Below the pieces are notes generated by a model, which had not been told where the DNA came from, made no database searches, and saw only the letters and a program-made list of their open reading frames with translations. A program made the position numbers and the translations under genes. From positions 217,018-281,017 of the forward strand of contig CAVVST010000003.1 in NCBI GenBank assembly GCA_963750995.1: a stretch of 64,000 nucleotides of DNA, in the 5' to 3' direction. Source of the DNA: an uncultured Acidobacteriota bacterium. GTDB taxonomy: Bacteria > Acidobacteriota > Vicinamibacteria > Vicinamibacterales > UBA2999. This document shows positions 11,176-52,035 of the stretch, one piece after another. The first letter of the stretch is position 1. Every line of letters begins with the position of its first letter.

Positions 11176-11679
11176 TCAGTTCGGACCCGCGGAAAGATAC
11201 GCGATCAGCGTTTGCCGTTCCGCCGCCGTCAGCGACGCGCCGAGGGTGACCATCTGGTCGAGGATCGTGTTCCAGTCGCCGGACGCTGACTTGATGCGCG
11301 CCCGCTCGAGGTCATGGCACTGTTGACAACGCCGGGCCAGGATTGCGGTCGCCTCGTCAGCCGCACCTCCTCCCTGGTTGGTCGCCGCCCTGCCGCCCTG
11401 TGGCTGGCCCCGGCCGGTGCCGGTCGCCAGGTAAGCGGTGATCGCGTCGATTTCGTCCGGATACACCTGGGCTCCCCGGCCGATCATGCGATAGACCGTG
11501 TCTTTCCACTCGTCCGCCGACTTCTTGCGCACCTCCAGCATCCGGTTGAGGCCGATGTGGCACGTGACGCACACCTGGTTGACGGCGACCCGCCCCTTCT
11601 CGATCTGGGCTTGTGACGGAGCCTGCCCGGCGAGGGCACGCGACGCGACGGCCTGTGTACCAGCTGCCATCCACACCAT
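11176..11679 (-). pseudogene. dihaem c-type cytochrome, paralogue of 17715-18353, with start codon/N-region lost at a rearrangement junction
   Basis: Two CxxCH motifs (CVTCH, CQQCH), each followed by a W-x3-[VI]-x-[RQ]M motif. An in-frame hydrophobic segment (..WLAAIVSFALWVAMVWMAAG) continues upstream of 11679 with no start codon, up to the junction at about 11720. Confidence 0.55.
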
Positions 11680-11726
11680 GGCAACCCAGAGCGCGAACGA
11701 GACGATGGCAGCCAGCCAGCGAGGTG

Positions 11727-12056
11727 GGAGATTCGATCGGCTGGTGGGAGGGCGACACGCTCGTGGTGGACACCACCTTCAACGGCAAGACGCGGATGGC
11801 GCTCGGTGGCGATTATTACAGCGCGAACGCGCACGTCGTCGAGCGCTTTACTATGAAGGATTCCGAAACCATCACCTGGACGATGACGGTGACCGACCCC
11901 ACCGTGTTCACGCGGCCCTGGACGTTCACGACGGCCGCGCCGATGGCGCGCCAGCGCGAGGGCAGCAACGACTGGAACCGCGCGTTACGACTGCTGGATC
12001 CCGCCTGGGAGTACGACTGTCACGAGGGGAATGTCGTGCTCAAGCACATGCAGAAC
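11727..12056 (+). pseudogene. 3' fragment of a 'GxWEGDTLVVDT'-family gene (paralogue of 22648-23598)
   Basis: GDSIGWWEGDTLVVDTTFNGKTRMALGGDYYSANAHVVERF...DPAWEYDCHEGNVVLKHMQN aligns residue-for-residue with the C-terminal third of 22648-23598. The 5' two-thirds and the last ~25 codons are absent. Confidence 0.7.
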
Positions 12057-12337
12057 GTCGGCGCCTCGACGGTCACCCGGCTGCCATCGAGCTTGTAGAC
12101 GGCCGCGAATGGTGATTGCCGCACGCTGCTGCGCTTCACCGAGAGCTCGGTCGGCGACTGGGCGACGACCATCTGGCTCGGAAAGGGCACGTCGGCCCCG
12201 TTCCCCGCGACTTCCGGCCCGCTCTTGTCGTAATTGAGCACCCAGGTTCCGCTGAGATCAGGCCTGCCCTCGGCGAGCGACCCCGGGGACGCCGCCAGCC
12301 CGAGGGTGGCGGCCAACATAATCAGCGCTCGATTCAT
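12057..12337 (-). pseudogene. 5' fragment of a lipocalin-like secreted protein gene (paralogue of 23629-24126 and 42890-43393)
   Basis: GGAGGGG Shine-Dalgarno sequence, then MNRALIMLAATLGLAASPGSLAEGRPDLSGTWVLNYDKSG...AVYKLDGSRVTVEAP. Homology stops at about 12057, where the convergent WEGDTL fragment abuts. Confidence 0.7.
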
Positions 12338-15605: not shown

Positions 15606-16019
15606 TCAGCGCGCGTCTGCGCCGACTTCGTCGCTCGTGAATTCCTTCTTCGACTCGACCAGCGTGAAGCTGCTTGCGTTCACTGTCGGCGTGCCGTCCT
15701 TCGCGAGGAAGCCCTTCACGACGACTTCGGCGCCGATGAAGTCCTCGCGGCGGAGGCCGGCGCGGAGCAGGTTGCTGGCTCCGGCGCTTTCGATTTCCCA
15801 GGTCACCATCTGGCCGGTGGTCGGGTTCTTCACGTCGATGTAGATGTGCGCGTGGGGATTCTGCCACCCCATCTTGCTCACCACGCCCCGCAGCGTGACC
15901 GGCTTGTTGCCGTCGTACACCGCCGAGAACGAGTGATGCGCCTCGACCGCAGCGACGGCTCCGAGCAGCGCCACCAGGGTTCCTGCGGCGAGTGCGGCGA
16001 ACGCGGACTTGCTACGCAT
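15606..16019 (-). CDS. small secreted 'A-HH / WxNPH' protein (DUF6152-like), copy 1
   Basis: GGAGG Shine-Dalgarno sequence. MRSKSAFAALAAGTLVALLGAVAAVEA|HHSFSAVY...GWQNPHAHIYIDV. Confidence 0.7.
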   Translation of the reverse strand: MRSKSAFAALAAGTLVALLGAVAAVEAHHSFSAVYDGNKPVTLRGVVSKMGWQNPHAHIYIDVKNPTTGQMVTWEIESAGASNLLRAGLRREDFIGAEVVVKGFLAKDGTPTVNASSFTLVESKKEFTSDEVGADAR

Positions 16020-16169: not shown

Positions 16170-17114
16170 TTACTGGGCGCCGCCCCGCAGGCGCTCCTCG
16201 GCTTCTTTCCTCCCCTCCGGCGTCATCTTCTCGAAGGCGAACGCATCCTCGTTCGCCGTGCAGAGGTATTCCGACCAGACGTCGTTCGGATCCTGCGCCA
16301 GCGTCCAGGTGTGCGGCGCCGACACCAACGGCTTCAGAAGCACAACGGGATCGATGACGGTGTACTGGTAGGTCAGATAGTGCTTCGAGTTCCGGGTGAA
16401 GCGCTCGATCACGCGCTCCTCGGGGCTGTGCGTCCAGGCGTTGTTGTCTCCCCTCGCTCCGACCGAGATGTTCCGCATCCGCGTGTCGATCGCAATCGTG
16501 TCGACGACCAGCGTATCGCCTTCCCAGTGGCCGACGGACTCGCCGTTGAATGTGACGTCGGGGCTCTTCGAGTGCGGACGCCCATCGGTCGGGATGCGCC
16601 TGATGGTCTGCGGGAATTCAGTCAAGATCCAGACGGCGCCCGGCTTCTGGATGATCTCCATCGGGCCGTGCTCGGTGGCCTGCGTCGTGATCGACGTCGG
16701 CGTGCCGCCGGGCGCACAGGTCCCGTACGGCGTCGGAAACTGGTACTTCGCCTTCGTTTCCGGCCTGAACTCCGCCGCCGGCTGCGGCGTCACCGCGGGG
16801 TCGTACTGGCCCATGACGTCTTCGCCGAGCCGGTATCCGCCCTGGAGCATCCGTCCGGCTCGGTTCGGATAGTACCGCCCGGTGAGGTCCGGCTTCCCGT
16901 CTTCTGCGCGCGGGGCGGGGCCGCCGTTGGGCAATACCTTCACGTCGCCGAAGTTCCCGGCGATACGCGACCAGTCCTTGGCCTGCGCATCCTGTGCCGC
17001 CTGAGTGTTCTGTGCGTTCTGCGCTTCGATCGGCATCGACAGTACGACCGCCGCCGCCAGCCCGAGTCCCGCGCGCACCCACGGTCCGCAGCCCCGCCGT
17101 GTCATTCCTTGCAT
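16170..17114 (-). CDS. secreted 'GxWEGDTLVVDT'-family protein, copy 1
   Basis: GGAGGG lies 6 nt upstream of the ATG at 17114. Signal-like WVRAGLGLAAAVVLSMPIEAQ. Motif VGHWEGDTLVVDTIAID; C-terminal region HYLTYQYTVIDPVVLLKPL. Confidence 0.7.
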   Translation of the reverse strand: MQGMTRRGCGPWVRAGLGLAAAVVLSMPIEAQNAQNTQAAQDAQAKDWSRIAGNFGDVKVLPNGGPAPRAEDGKPDLTGRYYPNRAGRMLQGGYRLGEDVMGQYDPAVTPQPAAEFRPETKAKYQFPTPYGTCAPGGTPTSITTQATEHGPMEIIQKPGAVWILTEFPQTIRRIPTDGRPHSKSPDVTFNGESVGHWEGDTLVVDTIAIDTRMRNISVGARGDNNAWTHSPEERVIERFTRNSKHYLTYQYTVIDPVVLLKPLVSAPHTWTLAQDPNDVWSEYLCTANEDAFAFEKMTPEGRKEAEERLRGGAQ

Positions 17115-17175
17115 CTCCGACCCTCCATCCGGTTGCGCATGAATCCCGATACAGGTCACATCAGCGCGAGCGGCG

Positions 17176-17631
17176 CTATTTGTCCCAGAAACTGAGTTTC
17201 TCGGGCGTCATGTTCCGCTCGACCACCTGCCCGACGATACGAATGACACCGTCCGCCAGCTTGATATATTCCGCGGCGCCTCTGTTCGTGCCGTCAATCG
17301 TGAAGGCACCCGCCCTGGCGGCGCAGCCCCGGGCGTGCATCACCTTGCCTATTGCGCTCTCGAAGTGCTCGCGCGTCGTGCCGTTACGCCGCAGCGCGTT
17401 CGGCGTGATCATTTCCAGCCGCCAGGGCTGAACCTTGCCGCTGGGCTCCTTCACATCCATGCGCAGCCACGCGTGCGGGTTTTCCCATTCGATCCCGGTC
17501 AGCGGTCCTGTGAGGTCCATGCACTTGGTCGAATCGAACTCCACCCCGAATGAATGATGGGCAAGCGGCGAATTCGCGGCGCCGAGCAGAACCAGCAGGG
17601 CGGTAACAAAGGCGGCAAACTGAACTTTCAT
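17176..17631 (-). CDS. small secreted 'A-HH / WxNPH' protein, copy 2 (longer C-terminus)
   Basis: GGAGGA Shine-Dalgarno sequence. MKVQFAAFVTALLVLLGAANSPLA|HHSFGVEF...IEWENPHAWLRMDV. Confidence 0.7.
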   Translation of the reverse strand: MKVQFAAFVTALLVLLGAANSPLAHHSFGVEFDSTKCMDLTGPLTGIEWENPHAWLRMDVKEPSGKVQPWRLEMITPNALRRNGTTREHFESAIGKVMHARGCAARAGAFTIDGTNRGAAEYIKLADGVIRIVGQVVERNMTPEKLSFWDK

Positions 17632-17714: not shown

Positions 17715-18353
17715 TCAATCAATCACCCTGCCGAGCGCGGCGGAAGGCGCTACTGCGGCCGGGCGTTCGAGATACGCGGTCAGCGTCTGGTGCTCCGCAG
17801 GGGTGACCGGGGCGCCCAGCTTCACCATGCGGTCGATGATCGAGTCCCAGCTCTCGGCGGTCGCCGGCTTCGTCGTCGCCATCGCGAGGTCGTGACAGAG
17901 CTGGCACCGGCGCGCGAGGATCGCGGTGGCGTCGCCATCGGTCGCCGCAGTCGTGGCCCCGGCGGCGCGACCGCGTCGACCTGCCGCGGCTGGGGCGCCA
18001 CCTGCCGGCTGCGGGGGGACCTGTCCCCCGGTCGCCGTGAGATACGCCGTGAGCGGCTCGATCTCGTCCGGGAAGACCTGCGCTCCCCGGCCGATCATGC
18101 GATAGACGGTGTCCCTCCACTCGTCCGCGGTCTTCTTTCGAACTGCCACCATCCGCATGATGGCGCCGCCGTCGTGGCACCCCACGCAGATCTGCGTCAC
18201 CGCGGCCTTCCCCTTCTCGATGTCAGCTTGCGGCGCAGGCACCGCCTGTACGGGAACGAGGACGCGCGGTGCGCCGCTCGTGCCTTCGACACCGGGCGCC
18301 GCCCACACGGCGACCATCCACACGGCGAGGCATACGGGAGTGATCTGTCGCAT
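17715..18353 (-). CDS. dihaem c-type cytochrome (exported)
   Basis: ATG at 18353 overlaps the stop of the upstream ThDP gene (TAATG). Signal MRQITPVCLAVWMVAVWAAPG. CVGCH and CQLCH, each followed by W-x3-[VI]-x-RM (WRDTVYRM, WDSIIDRM). Confidence 0.75.
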   Translation of the reverse strand: MRQITPVCLAVWMVAVWAAPGVEGTSGAPRVLVPVQAVPAPQADIEKGKAAVTQICVGCHDGGAIMRMVAVRKKTADEWRDTVYRMIGRGAQVFPDEIEPLTAYLTATGGQVPPQPAGGAPAAAGRRGRAAGATTAATDGDATAILARRCQLCHDLAMATTKPATAESWDSIIDRMVKLGAPVTPAEHQTLTAYLERPAAVAPSAALGRVID

Positions 18354-20335
18354 TACACAGTCCTCGCCTTGCGCTGGATCTCGGCGATCGAGTGCCGCTG
18401 GTACCACGTCGGCTGGGACAGCGACGGACCGTCTTCTTCCACCTCGATGTCCATCAGCACGGCCTTGCCGTCGCGCATGCTGTGGATGGCGCGCTGCAAG
18501 GCGGGGACGAGCTCGCCGGCGTTGCGCACCCTCTCGCCCCGCAGGCCGTAGGCTTCGCCAATCTTTGCGAAATCGACGTTGGGGTCGCCAAGGTAGCCGT
18601 TATAGTCGCGGCCCTCTTCGAAGAACCGCCCGCCGCCGTTCATGTTGCGGGCGCGCGTCTCGTTGTACAGGTGGTTGTTCATGATCACGAGGAGCATGGG
18701 CGCCTCGTACCGCGCGATGCTCCACAGGGCCTCCGACTGGCCGAACAGGAAGCCGCCGTCGCCCTGCAGCGCGACCACCTGGCGCTCGGGGAGCCCGAGC
18801 TGCACGCCGAACGACGCCGCGACGCCCCACCCGAGCGCGGAACCGATGGTGCGGCCGTACTTCGCCTTGTTGTCGCCGCCGAACGTGAATTGGTTCAGCA
18901 TCTTGTAGGCCTGCGTGCCGAGTTCAGGGACGATCACGGCATTCTTGTCGAGCAGGCGTTCGAGCTCGAAGCCGACGCGCTCCCAGCTGAGGGGGCTCCG
19001 ATCGAAGAAGGCGTGGCGGGCGATCTCCCTCGATTTCTTCAGCTCCGCGGTGTGGGCGGACACCTCCGCGAGCCGGGTCGCGCGAATCCGCGCGATGCGA
19101 TCTCTCGTCAGGAGACTGTCAACCGCGTCGGATAAGTCACGAATGGCCAGCCGGACGTCGGACGCGATGGCCAGCTCCACCGGATAGACGCGGCCGAGGA
19201 TCACGGGATCGTGGCTGATGTGCACCGTCGGCGTGCCGGGCTGCGGCTCGCGGCGCTTGAAGCCCTCGCCGAACCCGATCATGAGGTCGGTCTGGCGCGG
19301 ATAGCGCAGCGTGCGCATCTGGCCCATGTACAGCGGGTGATCTGTCGGAAAATTCGCGTAGAGATCGTCCTCGGTGTCCGTGACGGGGACCGACAGCTTT
19401 TCCGCAAGGGCGAGCAGATCCGCGGTCGCTCCGTCCTCGAACACTTCCGGTCCGACGACGAACACCGGGTTTTTCGCTTCGACCAGCCACCGGGCCGCCC
19501 GCTGGATCGCATCGGTGGGGGCGCGGAACTTGTGGCGCGCGTTCGCCAGGTCGATCTTGTCGACACGCTGGCGCACGCGCTCGCCCGCCTGCGCCGTTCC
19601 CCACACCATCGTGACCGGTCCGCTCGGCGGCCCGTACGCAAACCTGATGGCGCGCCGCGTGATCTCGGCCATCTCGTCAGTCAGCAGGTTCGCCGTCCAC
19701 ATCGTGAACGGCTCGGTGGGCCTGAGCGTATCGTCCCAGCTTTCGAAGCCGTCCTTCCCCTGTGCCGACAGGTTTCCGTGCGAGTACGTCACGAGGAGCG
19801 GGACACGGTCCTTCCAGGCGCAGTACAGGTTGCTGATGGAGTTGCCGACGCCTGCGCCGCTGCCGAAAAAGAAGCCGAGGCTGCGGCTCGCCATCGCGTA
19901 GCCCGCGGCCGCAGCCACGGCGTGCCCCTCGTGGGTGACGTTGATGACCTGCACGTCGCCGGCGGCGTCGACCGCCTCCCAGAGCGGACCGAATCCGCTG
20001 GTGTTCGTATGAAAGAGCGTGCGGACACCTGCCGCGCGGAGCTGTGCGAGGACGGCCCCGGCGGCCGTGCCGTCGTACATCTCGAACGTTTCGCCACTCG
20101 GCAACGGACTGGCCACGACGCCCTGCGCGGCGCCCCCCGCTGCGGGCGCCGACCCGGTGGTGTCCTGGGCGAGCGCGGAGACCGACGGCCCCGCCCCGAG
20201 CGCGATACCCGTCACCGCCGTGGCGGCAAGAAAGTCCCGCCGGGACACGGTTGCGGCGTCAGCGTTCCGGCTGGGCGACTGCCCGTCCGCGTCAGTGACA
20301 GGAACGTTCGATGCCGGCTTCTTCGTGGTGCTCAT
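18353..20335 (-). CDS. Tat-exported thiamine-diphosphate-dependent enzyme (ALS/BFD superfamily), copy 1
   Basis: 660 aa. Twin-arginine signal SRRDFLAATAVTGIALGAGPSVSALAQ. Pyr-domain THEGHAVAAAAGYA. ThDP motif LQGDGGFLFG...LLVIMNN. Confidence 0.85.
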   Translation of the reverse strand: MSTTKKPASNVPVTDADGQSPSRNADAATVSRRDFLAATAVTGIALGAGPSVSALAQDTTGSAPAAGGAAQGVVASPLPSGETFEMYDGTAAGAVLAQLRAAGVRTLFHTNTSGFGPLWEAVDAAGDVQVINVTHEGHAVAAAAGYAMASRSLGFFFGSGAGVGNSISNLYCAWKDRVPLLVTYSHGNLSAQGKDGFESWDDTLRPTEPFTMWTANLLTDEMAEITRRAIRFAYGPPSGPVTMVWGTAQAGERVRQRVDKIDLANARHKFRAPTDAIQRAARWLVEAKNPVFVVGPEVFEDGATADLLALAEKLSVPVTDTEDDLYANFPTDHPLYMGQMRTLRYPRQTDLMIGFGEGFKRREPQPGTPTVHISHDPVILGRVYPVELAIASDVRLAIRDLSDAVDSLLTRDRIARIRATRLAEVSAHTAELKKSREIARHAFFDRSPLSWERVGFELERLLDKNAVIVPELGTQAYKMLNQFTFGGDNKAKYGRTIGSALGWGVAASFGVQLGLPERQVVALQGDGGFLFGQSEALWSIARYEAPMLLVIMNNHLYNETRARNMNGGGRFFEEGRDYNGYLGDPNVDFAKIGEAYGLRGERVRNAGELVPALQRAIHSMRDGKAVLMDIEVEEDGPSLSQPTWYQRHSIAEIQRKARTV

Positions 20336-21794: not shown

Positions 21795-22634
21795 ATGCGT
21801 TTCATTACCCTCGTCATGATCGCAGCCGCGACCGCTGCCGCCGTGCCGCCCGTCTCACCCGCCGTGGGGGCCCAGGCCCCCGCCGGCGCCGCGTATACCC
21901 CGGGCCGAACGCCCGACGGCCATCCGGACCTGCAGGGCGTGTGGCGCGCCTGGAACCTGGCGAAATACGACCTCGAGGATCACAGCGCGAAGCCGGGGAT
22001 TCCGGCGGGGCGCGGGTTCGTCGTCGATCCGGCCGACGGCAGGATCCCGTACCGGCCCGAGATGTTGGCCCGGCGCCAGAAGAACTACGAGGGCACGCTG
22101 ACGCCGGACCCGATTGCGAACACGGATCCGCTGGCCAAGTGCTACATGCCGGGCGTTCCGCGGCTGACCTATCTCGGGTGGCCGTTTCAGATTATCCAAG
22201 ACCAGCGGGACGTGAACTTCACGTACGAGTGGAGCCACAAGAAGCGGATCGTCCCGATTGGTGACACCAGTCCCCTGCCGGATCCCGACGGCGGCCTGAA
22301 CCTGCGATGGAACGGCATGGCCCGCGGACGCTACGACGGCAACTCGCTCGTCGTCACGCTGGGGAATTTCAACGCCTATAGCTGGTTCGACATGGCGGGC
22401 AACTTCCACAGCGACGCCCTCACGGTCGTGGAGCGCTACACCCCGATCGGCCCCGACACCCTCCAGTACGAAGCGACGATGACCGATCCGAAGGTATTCA
22501 CGCGCCCGTGGACCATTCGTATGGTGCTGCAGCGCCAGAAAGAAGTCGGCCTGCTCGATTACGAGTGCACCGCCATGCTCGATGACCTCGGCATTCATCA
22601 CACCTTTCCGAGAGACTTCGATGTCCAGCAATAG
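21795..22634 (+). CDS. secreted 'WEGDTLVVDT'-family protein, divergent copy 2
   Basis: Signal MRFITLVMIAAATAAAVPPVSPAVGAQ. PDLQGVW...; the motif is degenerate (RGRYDGNSLVVTLGNF). C-terminal region LQYEATMTDPKVFTRPW is shared with the family. Confidence 0.65.
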   Translation: MRFITLVMIAAATAAAVPPVSPAVGAQAPAGAAYTPGRTPDGHPDLQGVWRAWNLAKYDLEDHSAKPGIPAGRGFVVDPADGRIPYRPEMLARRQKNYEGTLTPDPIANTDPLAKCYMPGVPRLTYLGWPFQIIQDQRDVNFTYEWSHKKRIVPIGDTSPLPDPDGGLNLRWNGMARGRYDGNSLVVTLGNFNAYSWFDMAGNFHSDALTVVERYTPIGPDTLQYEATMTDPKVFTRPWTIRMVLQRQKEVGLLDYECTAMLDDLGIHHTFPRDFDVQQ

Positions 22635-22647
22635 GGTAAGGAGCGTC

Positions 22648-23598
22648 ATGCAGAATCGGGCTTCGATCGTCCTGTTGATCGCGGTGCTCCTGGCCGGAGT
22701 GGCCGTCGTCTCCACGCCTGCCCTCGCTCAGGGACGCGGCGGCGGCGCGGGACGCGGCGGCGGCGCGCCCAGGGTGGCGCCGGCCCTTCCCCCGGCCGGG
22801 CCGATCCCGCGCACTGCGGACGGCAAACCTAACCTCGAAGGCGTCTTCAGCGGCATGGGCTCGGGCCTGACGCACACGGTGATTCTCGAGGATCACACCT
22901 CGGGGTTCGGCATTCGCGGCGGCAAGAGCCTGATCATCGACCCGCCCGACGGCGTCATCCCGTACCAGCCGTGGGCGCTCGTCGAGCGGAACAAGCGCCG
23001 GGAAGACGTCAATGCCTATGAGGATCCCGTGGGGCACTGCGAGTTCTACGACATCGGACGCCTGCACTCGTTCGCGCAGCGGTTCATGTACACCGGCGGC
23101 AACATCGCGATCGCGGGCCAGGAGCAGATCGTCCGCATCATCGACATGAACCGCAAACAGCACCTGCCCGCGAGCATTCGACTCTGGAACGGCGACCCGA
23201 TTGGCCGGTGGGAGGGGGACACGCTGGTCATCGACACGACCAATTTCAACGGCAGGACTCGCATGGCGCTCGGCGGCGACTTCTACAGCGTGAACGCGCA
23301 CGTCGTCGAGCGCTACACGATGACCGATTCCAACACCATCACGTGGACGATGACGATCACTGATCCGACGGTGTTTACGCGTCCGTGGACCTTCACCACC
23401 GCGGCGCCGATGACGCGGCAGGTCGAAGGCAGCAACGACTGGAACCGCGCTCTGCGTCTCCTCGACCCGGCGTGGGAACACGACTGCCATGAAGGCAACG
23501 TGGTGCTGCGGCACATGCGGAACCTGTACGACAAGGCGTATGGCGGCAAGCCGCGCCAGCAGACCATACCGGGATCAGTGCCGGCCACCGCGCCCTGA
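22648..23598 (+). CDS. secreted 'GxWEGDTLVVDT'-family protein, copy 3
   Basis: TAAGGAG Shine-Dalgarno sequence 4 nt before the ATG at 22648. Signal MQNRASIVLLIAVLLAGVAVVSTPALAQ. A GRGGG-rich linker, then IGRWEGDTLVIDTTNFNG and TWTMTITDPTVFTRPW. Confidence 0.7.
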   Translation: MQNRASIVLLIAVLLAGVAVVSTPALAQGRGGGAGRGGGAPRVAPALPPAGPIPRTADGKPNLEGVFSGMGSGLTHTVILEDHTSGFGIRGGKSLIIDPPDGVIPYQPWALVERNKRREDVNAYEDPVGHCEFYDIGRLHSFAQRFMYTGGNIAIAGQEQIVRIIDMNRKQHLPASIRLWNGDPIGRWEGDTLVIDTTNFNGRTRMALGGDFYSVNAHVVERYTMTDSNTITWTMTITDPTVFTRPWTFTTAAPMTRQVEGSNDWNRALRLLDPAWEHDCHEGNVVLRHMRNLYDKAYGGKPRQQTIPGSVPATAP

Positions 23599-43700: not shown

Positions 43701-44558
43701 ATGTCGAGGTTAATTCGAACCGTAGGTGTGTGGGGTCTCCTGGGTCTCGGTCTGGCCGGTTTGCCCGCCCATGCGGAGGGTCAGGGCGGTGTGTCGGCAC
43801 CCCCACCGCCGAGACAGGAGCCGCAGCGGTCGATCGAAATCGACGAGGTGCCGGTGTTCTTCCGGGAGGACTGGCGGTACGATCCCAGCGGGCCTAACGT
43901 CAATAGTCCGAGGGAGCCGGAGCATCCAGTCTCGCAAGGGGACGTCTTGAACCCGAACCTGGAAGTGCGCGTGTACGGCGACGCGGTTGGCACCCGGACT
44001 GTCCTGCAGCCGGAGAACCGGGACACGAAGCCCGGCGGTGGCGAGGGACTGGTCTATGTGATGTCGCTGCTGTGCGGAACCAACCTCGATCGCGACGACC
44101 AGTCCGGAAAGGTGGTTCTCGGTCCCTCGACGCATGCGAACTGCTTGATCACGCTCAGGCACAGGAACAACGACGTGGATCTGTCTGGAGTGGCCACCAT
44201 CAAGTGGCGCACGAGGGTGAGCGGGTTTCACTGCCTTCGTCCCGTCCTGAAGCTCGCCAGCGGACAATGGCTCGTTGGCGACAAGTGTACCCAGGGCCCC
44301 CAGACGAGCTGGGCGGAGCAGGAGATTCAATTAGTTGACGTGCGATGGCGGAATCTGAACATCAACGAGGTCGTCGAGGCCCGCGACGGGTACTGGGTGG
44401 ATTTCCCGGACCTCAGCCGGGTGGAAGAAATCGGGTTTACTGATCTGATGAGGGGCGCCGGTCACGGATCCGGCGGCGGCTCCCGCATCGACTGGATCGA
44501 GGTCCACGGCAAGCCGGTTCCACGCGGGGCCTCGCGCGGCACGGGCGCCACCCGGTAG
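43701..44558 (+). CDS. secreted hypothetical protein
   Basis: GAAGGAG Shine-Dalgarno sequence. Signal MSRLIRTVGVWGLLGLGLAGLPAHAEG. No family recognised. Confidence 0.6.
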   Translation: MSRLIRTVGVWGLLGLGLAGLPAHAEGQGGVSAPPPPRQEPQRSIEIDEVPVFFREDWRYDPSGPNVNSPREPEHPVSQGDVLNPNLEVRVYGDAVGTRTVLQPENRDTKPGGGEGLVYVMSLLCGTNLDRDDQSGKVVLGPSTHANCLITLRHRNNDVDLSGVATIKWRTRVSGFHCLRPVLKLASGQWLVGDKCTQGPQTSWAEQEIQLVDVRWRNLNINEVVEARDGYWVDFPDLSRVEEIGFTDLMRGAGHGSGGGSRIDWIEVHGKPVPRGASRGTGATR

Positions 44559-44615: not shown

Positions 44616-45473
44616 ATGTTGATGGTCGGCCTGTTGGGTGCGGTGTTGGTCGTTCCCGTTCACGCCTTCGCGCAGAGCAGCTCGACGACGACCTGGCCCG
44701 ATCCGGTTCCCGATCGGCGGCCAGTCGCCGAGAAGGACAAGAAGCCGGCGCCGCGGCGCACCATTGCCGGAATGTGGGGCTCGAGGCTGGGCAACCAGGC
44801 AAAAGGCGTGCAGTTGAGGCCCAACGACGGCAGTCCGGAAAACGAACTGCCGTACACGCCCCTCGGCCTGGAACTGTACAAATCCCATAAGGCCCTCGAA
44901 GGGGCCAACGCCGTTCCCCCGGCCCAGACCAACGATCCCAGGGTTGCCTGCGAGCCGTTGGGGTTTCCCCGCTATAACCACTACGACCTCGGGGTTCAGA
45001 TCTTCCAGGACGAGTTCAAGGTGGCGATTCTGTACCACTACGACTACCGGTGGCGCATCATCTGGACCGACGGCCGGTCATTCCCGAAGCTGGTGGACGG
45101 CGGCGTGGAAATAGACGGCCAGTATCGAGAGCAGCGGTTCTTCGGATATTCGGTCGGCAGATGGATAGACGATTACACGCTCGAGGTTCAAACGGTCGGG
45201 ACGTTGCCCGAAGACCGGGTATGGCTCGACAACACCGGCCGGCCGATCAGCGACCAGGCGCGCATCACCGAAACGTTCCGGCGGTTGGACAACGACACCC
45301 TCGAGTGGTCGGAGACGATCGACGACCCGAAGATCTATACGCGGCCGTGGCAGACGATGAAGATACCGATGACGTTGCAGGATCCCCGCACCGACGTGCT
45401 GACGCGCTACTGTTCGCCATATGAAACCGATGCCTACAACAAGGCGTATGGCGATTCCGCGAGCGGCAAGTAG
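44616..45473 (+). CDS. secreted 'WEGDTLVVDT'-family protein, divergent copy 4
   Basis: MLMVGLLGAVLVVPVHAFAQ. The motif is degenerate (VGRWIDDYTLEVQTVG). C-terminal region LEWSETIDDPKIYTRPW fits the family. The start is uncertain: the SD-proximal ATG at 44597 is out of frame by 1. Confidence 0.6.
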   Translation: MLMVGLLGAVLVVPVHAFAQSSSTTTWPDPVPDRRPVAEKDKKPAPRRTIAGMWGSRLGNQAKGVQLRPNDGSPENELPYTPLGLELYKSHKALEGANAVPPAQTNDPRVACEPLGFPRYNHYDLGVQIFQDEFKVAILYHYDYRWRIIWTDGRSFPKLVDGGVEIDGQYREQRFFGYSVGRWIDDYTLEVQTVGTLPEDRVWLDNTGRPISDQARITETFRRLDNDTLEWSETIDDPKIYTRPWQTMKIPMTLQDPRTDVLTRYCSPYETDAYNKAYGDSASGK

Positions 45474-45506: not shown

Positions 45507-45923
45507 ATGAGAAACAGGCTGGTCATCGTGTTCACTCTGGCTGCGGCGATCCTGGCTTCGACTCCGTTAATCGCGCACCACACCGGATCTACTCTGTTGT
45601 CCGAAACCACCGTGACGCTGAAGGGCGTGGTGAAGACATGGCTGTGGTCCAATCCGCATTGTTTGCTGACGCTCGAGGTCACCGGGGCTGACGGCCAGGT
45701 CGTGCAGTGGGTGGTGGAAGCCCAGGCGCCGAACAGCATCTATCCCGCCGGCTATCGCAATAACACCTTCAAGCCCGGGGACCAGGTGACCGTCACATTG
45801 AACCCGGTTGCGAATGGCCGTCCCTACGGTCGCATCGCGCGGGTCGTGCTCGCTGATGGGACCACACTGGGCGGTGGGGGCGATGGAGGCGGAGCCCGCG
45901 GCCGCGGCGCAGCAGCGCAGTAA
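45507..45923 (+). CDS. small secreted 'A-HH / WxNPH' protein, copy 3
   Basis: MRNRLVIVFTLAAAILASTPLIA|HHTGSTLL...WLWSNPHCLLTLEV. Gly-rich tail. Confidence 0.7.
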   Translation: MRNRLVIVFTLAAAILASTPLIAHHTGSTLLSETTVTLKGVVKTWLWSNPHCLLTLEVTGADGQVVQWVVEAQAPNSIYPAGYRNNTFKPGDQVTVTLNPVANGRPYGRIARVVLADGTTLGGGGDGGGARGRGAAAQ

Positions 45924-46122: not shown

Positions 46123-46602
46123 ATGTCTACTGCCACTACGACTGACATGACGATCACGCGCCAGATGCTGATTGAGAAACTCAACGAGGACCTGGCGCGC
46201 GAGTACCAGGCAATCATTGCGTATGTCACCTACTCTCAGGTGCTGAAGGGCGCGGAATACATGGCAATCGCCGCGGAGCTCGAGGTCCACGCCGGCGAGG
46301 AACTGAAGCACGCGTTGACCATTGCTAAACAGATTGACTACCTCGGCGGAACGCCGGGCACCACTGCCCTGCCGGTCAAGCAGACCGACGATGCGCGCGA
46401 GATGTTGCGGGCGGACCTGGACAATGAGACCGCGACGATTCGCGCCTATCGTGAGCGTGTCGTTCAGTGTGAAGCGCTACAGGAGTACGCGATCGCCGAG
46501 GACATCCGCGAGATCCTGCGGCAGGAGCAGGAGCACCAGATCGATCTGGCGACCGCGCTTGGTGAAAACGTGCCCGACATGTCGAAGCGAAGCGCTCGCT
46601 GA
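46123..46602 (+). CDS. ferritin-like / bacterioferritin-family di-iron protein
   Basis: LNEDLAREYQAIIAYVTYS...ELEVHAGEELKHA...DLDNETATIRAYRE...EQEHQIDL carries ExxH-type four-helix-bundle ligand motifs. Confidence 0.75.
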   Translation: MSTATTTDMTITRQMLIEKLNEDLAREYQAIIAYVTYSQVLKGAEYMAIAAELEVHAGEELKHALTIAKQIDYLGGTPGTTALPVKQTDDAREMLRADLDNETATIRAYRERVVQCEALQEYAIAEDIREILRQEQEHQIDLATALGENVPDMSKRSAR

Positions 46603-46612: not shown

Positions 46613-47071
46613 CTACAACCATCGTCGAACGCGTACTTGATAGGCTGCATACTTCTGTCCGAACAACGCCGTCAGAACGCGCTCCTCCGGTGCGATTTGG
46701 AAGCGATTTATATAGAGGAAGTAGACAGGAAGAAACAGGAAGGCAAGTCCGTTCGACAAGAAGAGCGCCCAACCCAACAACATCGTGAGACCGCCCAGGT
46801 ACATGGGATTACGAGAAATCGCGTAGACACCCCAGGTGACCAGGGACGACGCGCGAGGCTTCATCGGATTGACTGTCGTCTTCGCTTTCCGGAACGTTGT
46901 GACACCGAGAATGCCGGTAGCGAATCCGGCCACGCCAAGAACGGCGGCGAGCCAGTTGTGCGCGGGTAAGTCAAAGTGAAGTAGTGGTGCAGCCCGCGAG
47001 ATCAGCCACATGGACACCGCCAGGACCAGCAAGAGTGCCGGTGGCGGGATTTTCGATTCAAGTGAAGGCAT
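46613..47071 (-). CDS. isoprenylcysteine carboxyl methyltransferase (ICMT/PEMT)-family membrane protein
   Basis: Four to five TM spans. LVTWGVYAISRNPMYLGGLTMLLGWAL and EERVLTALFGQKYAAYQVRVRRWL are typical of the family. Confidence 0.75.
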   Translation of the reverse strand: MPSLESKIPPPALLLVLAVSMWLISRAAPLLHFDLPAHNWLAAVLGVAGFATGILGVTTFRKAKTTVNPMKPRASSLVTWGVYAISRNPMYLGGLTMLLGWALFLSNGLAFLFLPVYFLYINRFQIAPEERVLTALFGQKYAAYQVRVRRWL

Positions 47072-47124
47072 GCCGCATACTACTCGATCGGATTGAGCCG
47101 AATCGCGGCGCGGCAGCGCAGTAA

Positions 47125-48429
47125 CTACGGCAGCTGCGAGAGCTGCTCGAGGAGCTTGCCGCGCGCGCTGTCAGCCGGCACCAGCCGCTGCACGCGCTCG
47201 CCGGAGAACACCTCGCCCGTGTAGATGTAGCCACGCGAGTCGGTCGCCGCCAGCTCCAGGCCGAAGAACTGCCCGCCGTTGTCGCCCATGCTCCCGTAGC
47301 GGCCGGCGATGGCGCCGTCGGCGCGGTTGACGAACCAGATCGTGTTGTTCTTCATGTCGGCGACGTAGAGATACTTCTGCTCCTTGTCAGCCGAGAACGT
47401 GACGCCCCCGGCGACGCCACGGCTCCCGGTCTCGCCGCGCTTCGTCCCCGGCGGCGAGAAGACCAGCTCTTTCACGAACTTCCCTTCCCTCGTTGTCACG
47501 TGAATGCGATCCGCCATGCGGTCGGCGGCATACACGAACCCGTCCCGGGAGACGTTGATCGTCAGGTGCGACTGGAACTCTTTCGGCGGGGTGCTGCCCA
47601 CCCACTCGTGATCGGCGGGGTCGAGCGAGATGTCCGCCAGCTTGTGCCCGTAGGCGCCCCAGCCGCGCTTGAACGCCAGCGTGTCGAGGTCGAACACGAG
47701 CACGCGCCCGCCGAGATAGTTGTCCGCGACGTAGATCTCGTTGTGCGCCTCGTCGACGCGAATCTCCTCGATCGTGCCGACCACCATCGGCGTGGACGGC
47801 GGATACTTCGCATGGAACGCTGACATCGCCTTCGCCGCCGCGGCCGGCTCCGGCGCGCTGGCGGCCGCCGCGGCCGGCGGCAGCAGGAACCTGGTGATCG
47901 GCGCGGGACCGCCGCGCCCCGCGACGCGCGGCGCAATCGAGGCCGGCTGGTTCGGACCGCCGCCAAGGCGCTCGGGGATACGGGCGATCTCCCCCACCAG
48001 CTTGCCGGTCCGCGTGTCGTACTTCCGGACCGTATCCTGCCCCAGGTAGGCGAACCCGCGGTCGTCAACGTCCATGCCGTGGCCCTGCGGCGCGTCGAAT
48101 GAGCCGAGCACGGTTCCATCCTTGCCGAGGTGAATCATCGCCGGTGCGCGCACGCAGCAATCGGAGACGCCGAGCTCGGCCTCGAGCTCGAGGCTCGTCA
48201 GGTCGCCCGGTCGCTGATAGATCCAGACGTTGTCGTCCCTGTCGATGCCCAGTCCGATGACGCCGCCGATCTTCCATCTGTTCGGCAGCGGCTTCGGCCA
48301 GTCGGGGTCGAACTTGTAGCGCGGCGCGTTCGGGCCCTGGGCCCCCACACCGACGAGCAGCCCCGTCGCACCCAGCGCAACGGCAAGGACGACAGCATTC
48401 ACGCGCGCGCGATCAACACTCTTCTTCAT
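47125..48429 (-). CDS. secreted NHL-repeat beta-propeller protein (copy 2, intact)
   Basis: Start at the internal ATG 48429 (MKKSVDRARVNAVVLAVALGATGLLVGVGAQ). YKFDPDWPKPLPNRWKIGGVIGLGIDRDDNVWIYQRP and repeated ...YVAD/YTGEV blades. The ORF-track start at 48858 lies inside the upstream gene. Confidence 0.75.
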   Translation of the reverse strand: MKKSVDRARVNAVVLAVALGATGLLVGVGAQGPNAPRYKFDPDWPKPLPNRWKIGGVIGLGIDRDDNVWIYQRPGDLTSLELEAELGVSDCCVRAPAMIHLGKDGTVLGSFDAPQGHGMDVDDRGFAYLGQDTVRKYDTRTGKLVGEIARIPERLGGGPNQPASIAPRVAGRGGPAPITRFLLPPAAAAASAPEPAAAAKAMSAFHAKYPPSTPMVVGTIEEIRVDEAHNEIYVADNYLGGRVLVFDLDTLAFKRGWGAYGHKLADISLDPADHEWVGSTPPKEFQSHLTINVSRDGFVYAADRMADRIHVTTREGKFVKELVFSPPGTKRGETGSRGVAGGVTFSADKEQKYLYVADMKNNTIWFVNRADGAIAGRYGSMGDNGGQFFGLELAATDSRGYIYTGEVFSGERVQRLVPADSARGKLLEQLSQLP

Positions 48430-48458
48430 GCACACTCTCTGTCCCAGCGAATAGAGGA

Positions 48459-49232
48459 TTACCGTCGAATGGGAATCGGCGACGGCACGCCGAGGAAGCG
48501 TTCGCGAAAACGCAGCTCGTCGGAGATGGTGTAGATCGTCTCGATCATCGCGCCGTCCTCGACCCGCTGGTACTGTATCTCGGCCGACCACGGCTTTGTG
48601 AACGCGACCGGATCCTCGAACGTGAAGTGCATCGTCAGGGTGTTGCCGTCGCGCCGGATACGCTCGACGATGTGCAGGTCCTCGCTGTGGGGAACGCCCT
48701 GTCCCGTGATCCAGGTCGAGGGCTTGTACCCGGTTGAATCGACGACCAGCGTGTCGCCCTCCCACTTGCCGACCGCGTTGCCGTACCACGTCGGCGGGTC
48801 GTCTGGCGAGTGCTCCTTGTTGATCGCGATCTGACGCCAGTTCTGGTTGTATTCCCACAGGTGGTAGACGTAGTCGTCGGTCTGCACCAGCTTGAACTTC
48901 ATCGGATGCATCTGGATCCGCGGGTACCCATTCGGGTCGGCGTACAGGACCGCGGGGTCGGTCGTCTCGCGGAAGTCATTGGTCGAGAATGTCGGCTTCT
49001 CCAACTTCATCTTTTCGGTGGCCCATGGTGTGAGCGGGAAGCCCTCAGCCGGACGCAATGAGGCGCCGCCCGGGCCGGCGGGGTGAACCCAGGTACCAGA
49101 AATATCCGGACGCTGAGCTTCGGGCGCCGAAGCCTCGGCGGAGGCGGCCGGCGGTGCACTCTCCCCCGCACAGCCGGCCACGGCTGTTGCCAGGAGTCCC
49201 GCCGTCACGAAGAGAAGACCGTGCGCCCTCAT
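48459..49232 (-). CDS. 'GxWEGDTLVVDT'-family lipoprotein, copy 5
   Basis: MRAHGLLFVTAGLLATAVAGC (lipobox). PDISGTWV...VGKWEGDTLVVDSTGY...TFEDPVAFTKPW. The start overlaps the upstream stop (ATGA). Confidence 0.7.
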   Translation of the reverse strand: MRAHGLLFVTAGLLATAVAGCAGESAPPAASAEASAPEAQRPDISGTWVHPAGPGGASLRPAEGFPLTPWATEKMKLEKPTFSTNDFRETTDPAVLYADPNGYPRIQMHPMKFKLVQTDDYVYHLWEYNQNWRQIAINKEHSPDDPPTWYGNAVGKWEGDTLVVDSTGYKPSTWITGQGVPHSEDLHIVERIRRDGNTLTMHFTFEDPVAFTKPWSAEIQYQRVEDGAMIETIYTISDELRFRERFLGVPSPIPIRR

Positions 49233-49597
49233 GCCTGCAGTTCCTTGCCGTTCGCGAGGACCACCTTGACGAGTTTGCCGACGCGGGTCCCGCGCAGTCC
49301 GGGGTTGAACGTGACCGTCACCACGTCTCCCACCTTCAGCGACTTGCTGGTCCAGCCCCGGTTGGCAATGTTCGGTGGAGAACCGAGCTCGAGCAGCCAG
49401 CGCGCGCTCTTGTCATCAACAGATGCGATCCCGATCTCCACGTGTGGATTCGTCCACACGAATTCGGTAATCGTCACCTTCAGCGTGGTTTCCTTGTTGA
49501 CGTCGTAGAGCGATGCCGCTCCATGATGGGCACGCGTAGACATCGAGAGAAGAAGGAGGGTGACGACTCCGGCCAGTACTGACACGCGGCTGCGCAT
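49229..49597 (-). CDS. small secreted 'A-HH / WxNPH' protein, copy 4
   Basis: MRSRVSVLAGVVTLLLLSMSTRA|HHGAASLY...FVWTNPHVEIGI. Confidence 0.7.
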   Translation of the reverse strand: MRSRVSVLAGVVTLLLLSMSTRAHHGAASLYDVNKETTLKVTITEFVWTNPHVEIGIASVDDKSARWLLELGSPPNIANRGWTSKSLKVGDVVTVTFNPGLRGTRVGKLVKVVLANGKELQA

Positions 49598-49741
49598 AAG
49601 ACCCTCGTTTGCATGCCGGGTAAACGACGGAAATCGAAGCAGAGTATACAGTGGCAGGTCTGGCCCGGTGCCGGCCAGCTCGGTGGACCAACCCGATCTC
49701 AACCTTGGGGAGATTCGGTAGAATCGCGGTGGAGGTGTCGC

Positions 49742-50119
49742 GTGAACGTTGGACTCCGGACTCTCGCGGTTTTCGTAGGCGTCCTCTGGGTCTCCGCCTC
49801 GCTCTCAGCACATCACTCGTGGCCTGTCAGCTACTCGAAAATGGTGACGGTCAAGGGAACGGTCACGGCGTTGTCCTGGGAGAACCCGCATCCCATGATC
49901 TCCCTCGATGTCCGTGGTACCGACGGGAAGATCGAAAAATGGAGTGTCGGCGGCCCCGCCATCACCCGCATGGAGGCGAGCGGCTGGACCAGGACCACCC
50001 TCAAGGTAGGCGATGTGATTACGGGCATCGGCTATCAGTTTGCCGATGGCGCGAAGACCGTCCGCCTCGAGAAGGTGGTGATGGCCGACGGAAAGGAACT
50101 GCTCGTCTACGGTCGTTGA
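49742..50119 (+). CDS. small secreted 'A-HH / WxNPH' protein, copy 5
   Basis: GTG at 49742 after GGAGGTG. VNVGLRTLAVFVGVLWVSASLSA|HHSWPVSY...LSWENPHPMISLDV. Confidence 0.7.
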   Translation: MNVGLRTLAVFVGVLWVSASLSAHHSWPVSYSKMVTVKGTVTALSWENPHPMISLDVRGTDGKIEKWSVGGPAITRMEASGWTRTTLKVGDVITGIGYQFADGAKTVRLEKVVMADGKELLVYGR

Positions 50120-50332
50120 TCGTCCTCGCGACTGCCGTTCATGACCTCGAGTACGCCGGTGCCGGTTTCGCCGAGATCCTTGGTGACGGCGAGTGCCGCG
50201 ACGCGTACTTCATCGACGTGAGCGAAGCTCACAAACACGCGCATCCCACGATTCTCAGCCAGTGGAGTCGTGAGTGCGTCGCGGCGGATTCAGACGGCGC
50301 TTACCTGTGCCTAAACGCGCGAGTCAGCTGGC

Positions 50333-50710
50333 TCAGCGGCCGTAGACGCGGATCTCCCGGCCGTCGGCGAGCATCACGCGCTCGAGCCGGACGATCTTCT
50401 GCCCGTCGGCGAACTGGTAGCCGGTGCCCGTGATCACGTCGCCCAGCTTCACCGTCGTTCGGGTCCAGCCATTGGCCTCCATCCGGTTGAGGGCTGGCCC
50501 TCCGATCAGCCACTTCTCCTTTTGCCCGCCGTCGGCCTGGACCTCGACCGTGATCATCGGGTGCGGGTTCGCCCACACGAACTCCGTCACCGTGCCCTTG
50601 ACCGTCACGAGCCGCGTGCGGCTCACCGGCCACTGGTGATGGGCGGACAGCGGCACTGCCGCAGAGAGCAGCGTCAGCACAAGAAATCCTGGAATCAGTA
50701 CAGCCTTCAT
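50333..50710 (-). CDS. small secreted 'A-HH / WxNPH' protein, copy 6
   Basis: MKAVLIPGFLVLTLLSAAVPLSA|HHQWPVSR...FVWANPHPMITVEV. Closest paralogue of copy 5, and convergent with it. Confidence 0.7.
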   Translation of the reverse strand: MKAVLIPGFLVLTLLSAAVPLSAHHQWPVSRTRLVTVKGTVTEFVWANPHPMITVEVQADGGQKEKWLIGGPALNRMEANGWTRTTVKLGDVITGTGYQFADGQKIVRLERVMLADGREIRVYGR

Positions 50711-50802
50711 GGAACGCGCTCCTTTCGTCAGCGATTCTAAGACAGAACCGAGGCCGTACGCGCAATCCGCCCAAACCCAGGACAGAGGGTCCTCCTGCTC
50801 CA

Positions 50803-52035
50803 CTATTTGCGCAGTGATCTGAAGCCGGCGCGAACCTCTTCCGAGAACAGTTGCGGCTGTTCCCATGCCGCAAAGTGCCCGCCTTTCTCAACCTTGTGGT
50901 AGTGGATCAGTTTCGGATACGCCCGCTCCGCCCAGCTCCGCGGGGCTGGATAAAGTTCGTCAGGGAAGACGCTCACGGCAACCGGGATGGAGACGCCTTT
51001 GGCAGTGAAATACCCGAGTTTGCCCCAATTCTCCCAATAGAGACGGGCGCCAGAAAGCGCCGTATTCGTCAACCAGGTGACCGTGATGTTGTCGAGGATG
51101 TCGTCGCGCGTGAGGCCCTCGGCTTTTCCTTGAAAGACGCGTGAGATCAGCTCGTAGCTGCGTGCGTCGTGATCAAGGAAATACGCCGCCAGGCCGACGG
51201 GTGAATCCGCGATTCCGTACAACGTCTGCGGGCGCAGCCCCATCTGGAACCCGTAGGCGATTCCCTTTTGATAGACGAACTGCAGACGCTCGTAAGCGAG
51301 TTTCTCATCGGCTGAGAGACCCGATGGCGCCGGCGCGCCGGAAAAGGCCGCCCCGTCAATGTCGGCTGGAAAGATGCCAGGCATGTTGGTGTGAATGCCG
51401 AGCAATTCCGGGGGTGCCAGGACTCCCATCATGTCGACGACCACCGCGCCCCAATCACCGCCTTGCGCCACGAACTTCTTGTATCCGAGGCGCTTCATCA
51501 GCAGGACCCAGGCACGCGCGATGTGGGGAACATCCCACCCGGTGGTGGTCGGTTTGCCGGAGTATCCGTAGCCCGGCATCGACGGGATCACCAGGTGGAA
51601 GGCATCGGATGCATTTCCGCCGTGTGCGGTGGGATTGGTCAGCGGATCGATGATCTTCATCTGTTCGATGATCGAGCCGGGCCATCCGTGCGTAACGATC
51701 AGCGGCAGCGCATTTTCGTGTTTTGAACGGACGTGAATGAAATGAATGTCCAGTCCATCGATCTCGGTCATGAACTGGGGCAGGGCGTTCATTTTTGCCT
51801 CGATCTTGCGCCAGTCATAATCTGTCGCCCAATAGCGCGCCAGCGCCTGCATCGTCGCGAGCTGCACGCCTTGCGTTGCGTCCCGGACTGTCTCCCTTTC
51901 GGGCCACGCGGTCGTCTTGACGCGCCTGCGCAATTCGGTAAGTTCCGCTTCCGGGACGTTTACACGAAAAGGACGAAGAGCGGTCTTGGCAGCCGCCTGC
52001 TCGCGGCCTTCTTCTGTAGCAATGGCCTGTGCCAT
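50803..52035 (-). CDS. epoxide hydrolase (microsomal-EH N-terminal domain + alpha/beta hydrolase)
   Basis: LRPFRVNVPEAELTELRRRV...IDGLDIHFIHVRS...LIVTHGWPGS...VAQGGDWGA (nucleophile Asp context). Confidence 0.85.
   Translation of the reverse strand: MAQAIATEEGREQAAAKTALRPFRVNVPEAELTELRRRVKTTAWPERETVRDATQGVQLATMQALARYWATDYDWRKIEAKMNALPQFMTEIDGLDIHFIHVRSKHENALPLIVTHGWPGSIIEQMKIIDPLTNPTAHGGNASDAFHLVIPSMPGYGYSGKPTTTGWDVPHIARAWVLLMKRLGYKKFVAQGGDWGAVVVDMMGVLAPPELLGIHTNMPGIFPADIDGAAFSGAPAPSGLSADEKLAYERLQFVYQKGIAYGFQMGLRPQTLYGIADSPVGLAAYFLDHDARSYELISRVFQGKAEGLTRDDILDNITVTWLTNTALSGARLYWENWGKLGYFTAKGVSIPVAVSVFPDELYPAPRSWAERAYPKLIHYHKVEKGGHFAAWEQPQLFSEEVRAGFRSLRK

Follow-up and report, generated by a model that had tools for sequence, protein, structure and literature searches.

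The stretch analysed here, called the window below, comprises 64,000 nucleotides (nt) from an uncultured Acidobacteriota bacterium of the order Vicinamibacterales (contig CAVVST010000003.1, assembly GCA_963750995.1), and its GC content of 64.7% agrees with an Acidobacteriota origin. It holds six genes for small exported proteins of the family DUF6152 (DUF, domain of unknown function), predicted to begin with two histidines once the signal peptide is removed, as well as genes for a second exported family, here called WEGDTL. The open reading frame (ORF) calls gave the six small proteins the same coordinates and strands as an earlier note on this DNA. The note had also guessed the family to be DUF6152, and the guess was correct, as the Pfam hidden Markov model (HMM) search that it had proposed matched PF19649 in all six copies. 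These are listed below, with lengths in amino acids (aa) and a slash at the predicted cleavage site.

15606..16019, minus strand: DUF6152 copy 1, 137 aa, AVEA/HHSF, WQNPH; PF19649 E 1.4e-23; AGGAGG upstream
17176..17631, minus strand: DUF6152 copy 2, 151 aa, SPLA/HHSF, WENPH; ends 16 nt upstream of a WEGDTL gene
45507..45923, plus strand: DUF6152 copy 3, 138 aa, PLIA/HHTG, WSNPH
49229..49597, minus strand: DUF6152 copy 4, 122 aa, STRA/HHGA, WTNPH; apparent translational coupling to a WEGDTL gene
49742..50119, plus strand: DUF6152 copy 5, 125 aa, GTG start, SLSA/HHSW, WENPH; its mature form was modelled
50333..50710, minus strand: DUF6152 copy 6, 125 aa, PLSA/HHQW, WANPH; convergent with copy 5

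The PF19649 scores of the six copies ranged from 69.7 to 83.2 bits (E 1e-19 to 1e-23), the gathering cut-off being 27 bits, and at least 90 of the 98 profile positions were covered. A six-frame regular expression search of ORFs of at least 50 codons found W.NPH exactly six times, always in a DUF6152 gene and 20-22 residues past A-H-H. Columns identical across the six copies in the alignment were Ala at -1, H1, H2, the W, N, P and H of the motif, one more Trp and three Gly. Pairwise identity was 24-36%, copies 5 and 6 reaching 59-67%. Because identity is low yet the motif is invariant, the copies are old paralogues and not recent duplicates, and their likeness is due to homology and not to chance. 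The mature chains are 99-127 aa long and the fold, in the model described below, is beta-rich, in line with the roughly 100-125 aa and the beta-richness noted before. Mature copies 3-6 contain three His each, precisely H1, H2 and the His of NPH; Met is wholly absent from mature copies 3 and 4, and Cys is mostly absent from the copies, with no CxxCH. Copy 2 (17176-17631, minus strand) is atypical in that its mature chain has two Cys and two additional His, and a C-terminal insertion and extension add in total about 25 residues relative to copies 4-6. A promoter and terminator scan of positions 47000-51000 gave nothing beyond shuffle expectation, and tblastn against annotated plasmids gave no match.

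A purine-rich, Shine-Dalgarno-like run was found upstream of all six genes. The Sec signal peptide is canonical in every copy, with a positive n-region, an h-region of 12-18 residues and Ala at -1, and this anatomy agrees with the export proposed earlier. The cleavage site directly before HH had been described as AxA-type; the Ala at -1 is present in 6/6, while position -3 is occupied by V, P, L, T, L and L, so that the site reads x-x-A. Among 150 family representatives, HH-x(20-22)-W-x-N-P-H was found in 132, and in the remaining 18 only the Trp was replaced or the sequence was truncated. Ala stood at -1 in 122 of the 132 motif-bearing representatives, and -3 was invariably a permitted small or aliphatic residue. 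The sequences thus strongly predict, for the family, cleavage at A/HH and a mature chain starting His1-His2. An HH fixed at +1 is what would be expected if the newly made N-terminus itself matters.

The family is large. An exhaustive profile search (E <= 1e-3) returned 15,864 clusters when members were grouped at 50% identity; at 90% identity, more than 5,800 were found. In 135 diverse members the invariant columns were H1, H2, P26 and H27 and no others (residue numbers are those of mature copy 5), with A(-1), G16, W23, N25, G39, W44, G58, G67 and G94 near-invariant; there was no conserved Met or Cys column among these members. The HH…NPH set was complete in 485 of the 490 members collected. 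Seven representatives (P0241, P0242, P0248, P0258, P0273, P0284 and P0292) are tandem two-domain proteins, and in all seven the second, internal domain has lost HH, the NPH His, or both, so the complete set is kept only where the N-terminus is free. The gene of one further database protein, P0282, looks mis-assembled or rearranged. No solved structure was detectable by sequence, since profiles of 6 and of 135 DUF6152 sequences gave only spurious matches in the PDB. The 'Cake' designer propellers among them were rejected, as weak repeats had been summed, and the other matches had E >= 0.1.

The mature form of copy 5 was modelled with AlphaFold2 (AF2) from a 135-sequence alignment, with a predicted local distance difference test (pLDDT) score of 93.5 and a predicted template modelling (pTM) score of 0.84. 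The elements in the model follow in the order b1(6-22)-b2(29-35)-b3(41-47)-helix(51-56)-b4(69-77)-b5(83-91)-b6, where b denotes a beta strand. This predicted strand order is the topology of the oligonucleotide/oligosaccharide-binding (OB) fold, and none of the solved relatives is close. Among the Foldseek matches listed for the model, 50/50 were OB domains, including the anticodon-binding domain of lysyl-tRNA synthetase (LysRS), PriB, SSB and Stn1-Ten1, with template modelling (TM) scores of 0.5-0.65 and 10-19% identity. The near-invariant G16 takes the position of the usual b1 bend of an OB fold, W-x-N-P-H forms loop L12, and HH lies ahead of b1.

Mean-field direct coupling analysis (DCA) was run on 436 non-identical DUF6152 sequences, with an effective number (Neff) of 178. 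It was noisy and recovered the b4-b5 and b2-b3 pairings. A ladder of couplings (17-69, 13-71, 11-76 and 7/8/9-78; best register i+j = 86) pairs b4 antiparallel with b1 in its N-terminal half, and N25 in L12 was coupled to G80 in L45 at the 99.5th percentile. From the ladder and this coupling, residue 6 should neighbour residue 80, and L45 should neighbour L12; the four to five residues before b1 should therefore emerge by the NPH loop, on the OB ligand face that bears W44. The modelled fold, read with these couplings, gives indirect support for a chain start placed where L45 meets L12.

Members of the second family were searched for with an HMM of their own. Three had been reported for the window, and the count proved to be six, the last three in the following rows being the additions.

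16170..17159, minus strand: WEGDTL partner, 329 aa, 'GHWEGDTLVVDT'; between copies 2 and 1; WEGDTL HMM E 5e-76
44616..45473, plus strand: WEGDTL partner, 285 aa, 'GRWIDDYTLEVQT'; 33 nt upstream of copy 3; WEGDTL HMM E 4e-77
48459..49232, minus strand: WEGDTL partner, 257 aa, lipobox VAGC, 'GKWEGDTLVVDS'; its ATG overlaps the copy 4 stop codon (ATGA)
11613..12098, plus strand: short WEGDTL paralogue, central part of the profile only; WEGDTL HMM E 2e-18; no DUF6152 gene adjoining
21795..22634, plus strand: WEGDTL paralogue; WEGDTL HMM E 3e-32; no Pfam match; no DUF6152 gene adjoining
22582..23598, plus strand: WEGDTL paralogue; WEGDTL HMM E 3e-25; no Pfam match; no DUF6152 gene adjoining

The last two of these lie in tandem with an overlap of about 50 nt. 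The conserved motifs of the family are G-x-W-x-G-D-T-L-V-V-D, E-R and D-P. Scanning of 62 members gave no Pfam match even at E <= 1, only scattered noise; NCBIfam matched neither the WEGDTL nor the DUF6152 proteins, and the WEGDTL profile had no match among PDB sequences. With the 48459-49232 protein as query, homologues formed 1,253 clusters at 90% identity, all without a Pfam domain. The AF2 model of the same protein (pLDDT 83) is an anti-parallel barrel of 9-10 strands with short helices in front. Its best Foldseek matches were cellular retinol-binding proteins (CRBP) and fatty-acid-binding proteins (FABP), and these were weak (E ~1e-3, TM 0.5-0.63 by target, 0.3-0.36 by query). By its predicted barrel and N-terminal helical segment, the protein weakly resembles the calycin superfamily (FABP/CRBP, lipocalins). 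The WEGDTL proteins differ from FABPs in being about twice the size and exported, in one copy being a lipoprotein, and in having no sequence similarity to Pfam or PDB entries. On the model, WEGDTL is best described as a calycin/FABP-like barrel of a new sequence family.

Pairing of the two families had been claimed for the window, and it held for copies 1-4, which are directly paired with a WEGDTL gene, and not for copies 5 and 6. Copy 1 follows the WEGDTL gene 16170..17159 and copy 2 precedes it on the same strand. The pairing was followed in 80 genomic loci found with a query of the copy 5/6 type, almost all of them from Acidobacteriota (Vicinamibacterales, Bryobacteraceae, Terriglobia). WEGDTL was by far the commonest neighbour family (31/80 loci), and 15 of its 34 genes lay at most 300 bp from a DUF6152 gene, 11 of them on the same strand. 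Among background families, the same distance was found for 1/18 TonB-type barrels and 1/21 Ser/Thr kinases. Neither these two nor MacB/FtsX and histidine kinases were accepted as specific partners, since the distances from DUF6152 were not clustered. Most of the extra DUF6152 copies in the 80 loci directly adjoin a WEGDTL gene, usually on the same strand, and orthologues of the partner with 55-78% identity have kept the upstream DUF6152 gene while their other flanking genes differ. Around orthologues of copy 1 the order DUF6152-WEGDTL(-DUF6152) recurs. The full order of five genes in the window (thiamine pyrophosphate (TPP) enzyme, cytochrome c, DUF6152, WEGDTL, DUF6152) was not conserved there, only its DUF6152/WEGDTL part.

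Natural fusions of the two families were also found. In one locus, L081, a single gene encodes 336 aa: a signal peptide is followed by a DUF6152 domain (ASA/HH…WRNPH; E 1e-20), which some 65 linker residues join to a WEGDTL domain (E 4e-18). Five other, independent metagenome contigs carry full-length relatives as intact ORFs (70-76% identity). The six fusion contigs have 47-56% GC, and all encode HH at the cleavage site, as SA/HH (in one ST/HH), and RNPH. Recurrent fusion in the gene order of the operon is classic evidence for physical cooperation. The evidence for joint action of the DUF6152 and WEGDTL families is the strongest new result of the analysis, and the modular partner role suggested in the earlier note is strongly supported by the conserved adjacency and the fusions. 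In L081, transposase genes (DDE_Tnp_ISAZ013, rve) at 3037-4260 and 14535-15752 lie on either side of the fusion gene and of another, separate pair of DUF6152 and WEGDTL genes, an arrangement that hints at a mobile module.

The reading that we favour, and to which we give about an even chance, is that DUF6152 is an exported OB-fold protein whose His1-His2 and L12 His form a metal site, and that it acts in complex with the calycin-like partner. The gene would give rise to a Sec-exported protein of about 100 aa with one OB-fold domain, and signal peptidase, cutting past the invariant Ala, would leave a chain beginning His1-His2. H1, H2 and the N-P-H His of L12 would then come together as a metal site on the canonical OB ligand face, with the near-invariant Trp23 and Trp44 alongside, and the free alpha-amine of His1 would probably join as a ligand. 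The metal would most likely be Cu(II), Ni(II) or Zn(II), and the candidate geometries are a brace, a GHK-like NH2/amide/imidazole chelate and a facial N3 set. The protein would be in physical complex with the WEGDTL barrel, which is encoded beside it or fused to its C-terminus, and the pair may be seen as a portable periplasmic module, multiplied in Acidobacteriota and set among periplasmic oxidative enzymes. The module would probably serve the barrel partner by holding, delivering or presenting either a metal ion or a small ligand with metal bound to it.

We infer the metal site on four grounds. Firstly, three His are invariant and there is essentially no other invariant polar residue; H1, H2 and the NPH His, as the sole invariant side chains of the family, support the look of a metal or active site. 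Secondly, HH stands strictly at the predicted +1. Thirdly, the motif decays in internal domains. Fourthly, other DUFs with an N-terminal His bind Ni or Cu (PMC12537917). The N-terminal-His proteins characterised recently prefer Ni over Cu (PMC12537917), and therefore Cu should not be assumed for DUF6152.

Several observations weigh against this reading. The DCA support for the placement of the N-terminus is indirect and noisy at an Neff of 178, and the couplings H1-H27 and H2-H27 were discarded as artefacts of columns without variation. In copy 2 (ANSPLA/HH) the Pro at -3 makes cleavage less certain, with GAA/NS as a possible alternative cut. The internal second domain still has HH in 4/7 of the tandem proteins, so that HH can persist without a free amine. 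The invariant polar residues of WEGDTL are one Arg, one Glu and one Asp, none of them a classic soft-metal ligand. No dedicated Cu, Ni or Zn homeostasis gene was found beside the DUF6152 genes, in the window or in the related loci. The literature search found the term 'DUF6152' in no paper, and literature on the histidine brace and the OB fold gave no description of the family.

Secreted proteins that grip a metal by a His1 made by signal peptidase were first known from lytic polysaccharide monooxygenases (LPMOs) and CopC, and later from several unrelated folds. The histidine-brace proteins (LPMO families AA9-AA17, CopC, PmoD, YcnI/DUF1775, X325/Bim1) resemble DUF6152 in having His1 after signal cleavage (predicted for DUF6152) and a second conserved His downstream, and in being small, secreted or periplasmic, and beta-rich. 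They differ in their immunoglobulin/fibronectin/cupredoxin-like sandwich, where a five-stranded OB barrel is predicted for DUF6152, and DUF6152 has an additional invariant His at position 2. LPMOs in particular have an immunoglobulin/fibronectin-III-like beta-sandwich with a flat substrate face. The kinship with LPMOs that the earlier note had brought up was not borne out, as the predicted fold is OB and not such a sandwich, and the copies have no LPMO, CopC or CusF match in Pfam: LPMO_10, Glyco_hydro_61, CopC and CusF_Ec were unmatched by all six, and DUF6152 was their sole Pfam match at E <= 0.01. The Cu(I)/Ag(I) metallochaperones CusF/SilF share with DUF6152 a small periplasmic OB fold (predicted for DUF6152) and, if the favoured reading holds, a metal on the face of the barrel with a Trp near the site. 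CusF binds its metal on the barrel face by a His-Met-Met set with a capping Trp, has no N-terminal His and has CusB/CusCBA as partners. DUF6152 differs from it in lacking conserved Met or Cys and a CusF_Ec match, and in its calycin barrel partner. Since DUF6152 fails the fold and HMM criteria of LPMO, CopC and CusF, it should not be filed under them.

The N-terminal-His metalloproteins described under the term 'signal strapping' include a Ni-binding DUF4198 protein, DUF6702 and the anglerases Ang-1/Ang-2 (PMC12537917). DUF4198 binds Ni by the NH2 and imidazole of His1 and another His, in a facial N3 set (PMC12537917). DUF6152 is like the families of that work in being a bacterial DUF whose conserved His is predicted to follow the signal peptide directly, at +1, and is not among them. 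It differs in the predicted OB fold as opposed to a beta-sandwich, in the HH doublet, and in the calycin partner or fusion where those families have a permease or TonB/NikR context. By analogy, the way in which DUF6152 works would be closest to that of the N-terminal-His metalloproteins, namely the histidine-brace proteins, DUF4198 and the anglerases.

The window is a mosaic of periplasmic modules, and three further genes stand in the strings that contain copies 2 and 4.

17715..18407, minus strand: dihaem c-type cytochrome, two CxxCH; PF09098, PF13442; directly upstream of copy 2, same strand
18353..20335, minus strand: exported TPP-dependent enzyme, benzoylformate-decarboxylase-like; Pfam TPP_enzyme N/M/C; heads the same-strand gene string
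47125..48429, minus strand: NHL-repeat beta-propeller with signal peptide; 29 nt downstream of a WEGDTL gene; third gene of the copy 4 operon; PDB NHL matches

The best PDB match of the 18353..20335 product was benzoylformate decarboxylase (8e-34). It has two paralogues in the window, and all three are TPP enzymes of benzoylformate-decarboxylase type extended by a long N-terminal part (18353-20335, 30261-32516 and 37212-39572, all minus strand). The Pfam model TAT_signal matches one of the three, and the N-terminus of another contains RR. The c-type cytochromes of the window are at 17715-18407, 36759-37190 and 11176-11679, all minus strand, and 2/3 of the TPP enzymes directly adjoin one. A periplasmic TPP enzyme with cytochrome c is an unusual coupling, and it may be an undescribed system for oxidation of 2-oxo acids in the periplasm. 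Four CarboxypepD_reg/OMP_b-brl_4 outer-membrane barrels are encoded. Two of them are each in two overlapping ORFs in different frames (12450-14273/13918-15438 and 32468-34015/33936-35333, plus strand), with the N- and C-terminal halves of one Pfam model in separate ORFs, which suggests frameshifts, due to sequencing errors or to decay into pseudogenes. A DUF1264 fragment-like ORF of 123 aa (29387-29758, minus strand), matching the first 38 model positions only, lies between genes of an outer-membrane barrel and a twin-arginine-translocated (TAT) TPP enzyme.

Near copy 3, a ferritin-like gene (Dps/bacterioferritin-type; 46123-46602, plus strand) lies 200 nt downstream and is the sole metal-handling gene found near any copy. 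The product of 43701-44558 (plus strand) has a signal peptide and no Pfam match; its gene is 57 nt upstream of the WEGDTL/copy 3 pair, and the protein is possibly a third component of that operon. The product of 42890-43621 (minus strand) also had no Pfam match. A metallo-beta-lactamase-fold protein with an inserted EF-hand-like calcium-binding loop is encoded at 10023-11096 (plus strand), and genes of this fold abut DUF6152 genes in 3 of 80 other loci.

The uptake barrels and catabolic enzymes in which the window is rich (epoxide hydrolase, benzoylformate-decarboxylase-like enzymes, class II aldolase) would also fit a role without metal. The His would then bind or process an organic or anionic ligand, such as an aromatic acid, a quinone, or a phosphate or sulfate ester, on the OB face, and DUF6152 with its barrel would carry or sense, in the periplasm, the substrates that the abundant TonB-type outer-membrane barrels import. 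The b2-b3 face of OB folds is the classic binding surface for oligomers or small ligands, and Trp23 and Trp44, both near-invariant, are placed on it; the FABP-like partner has its conserved Arg/Glu/Asp set. We nevertheless consider such a role unlikely. A plain pocket needs no HH exactly at +1, yet more than 90% of the members have it, and three invariant His with no other invariant polar residue are the typical signature of a metal site. The 1/18 TonB-type barrels within 300 bp show no distance dependence, and therefore the TonB link may be background.

Considerably more doubtful, in our judgement, is the view of the pair as a periplasmic copper protein of two subunits, either a redox enzyme or an electron-transfer unit. 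DUF6152 would then bear a true histidine brace on its OB fold, with Cu bound by His1 (NH2 and N-delta) and His27. Such a protein would oxidise a substrate, small and hydrophobic or aromatic, that sits in the calycin barrel, with the Cu centre over the barrel mouth; alternatively, it would take electrons from neighbouring periplasmic dehydrogenases dependent on pyrroloquinoline quinone (PQQ), TPP or flavin, much as fungal LPMOs take electrons from PQQ and cellobiose dehydrogenase (CDH) partners. An N-terminal His with a distal invariant His is what it calls for, and the barrel partner resembles lipid and retinoid carriers. The neighbours are suggestive as well: across the 80 loci PQQ dehydrogenases lie within 300 bp of DUF6152 in 4/10 cases, GSDH sometimes abuts it too, flavin mononucleotide (FMN) dehydrogenase is downstream of the DUF6152/WEGDTL pair in L081, and TAT-exported benzoylformate-decarboxylase-like enzymes and c-type cytochromes occur. 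On the other hand, the OB fold is unlike any known brace protein, and no copper chaperone or copper-resistance gene was found nearby. The flanks of DUF6152 are mostly unrelated singletons (104 of ~190 flanking positions), so that no enzyme partner is conserved except WEGDTL; indeed, no single enzyme was conserved beside the pair across the loci.

It is highly improbable that the pair handles haem or another tetrapyrrole, with two His as axial ligands and the barrel as a nitrobindin- or nitrophorin-like porphyrin carrier serving c-type cytochromes: calycin barrels can bind haem, c-type cytochrome genes are found in the window both beside the operon of copy 2 and at other places, and PSCyt and cytochrome-domain proteins recur in 8/80 loci, but cytochrome families are within 300 bp of DUF6152 in 0/8, DUF6152 has no CxxCH and mostly no Cys, haem-uptake and cytochrome-maturation genes are not adjacent, and the need for the N-terminal position would be left unexplained.

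DUF6152 itself is already catalogued as a DUF. What the analysis adds is a predicted OB scaffold for a site of this kind, the doublet of N-terminal His, and a barrel partner that is obligate and unnamed and is also found naturally fused. The metal-site reading turns a DUF into a directly testable hypothesis: the three residues and the partner are specified, and natural fusions offer both proteins as a single chain. If it is true, the N-terminal-His group gains the OB fold as a new scaffold, a family that counts ~16,000 clusters at 50% identity, and an obligatory partner family that no database has named. If the copper reading were true, a histidine-brace-type Cu centre on an OB fold would be a new scaffold, and the module one that is massively expanded in soil Acidobacteriota. 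Acidobacteriota are a dominant and poorly understood phylum of soils, and DUF6152 and WEGDTL are both abundant in them. Both families are set among periplasmic oxidative enzymes, and their function would therefore bear on the metal economy or the carbon turnover of soil.

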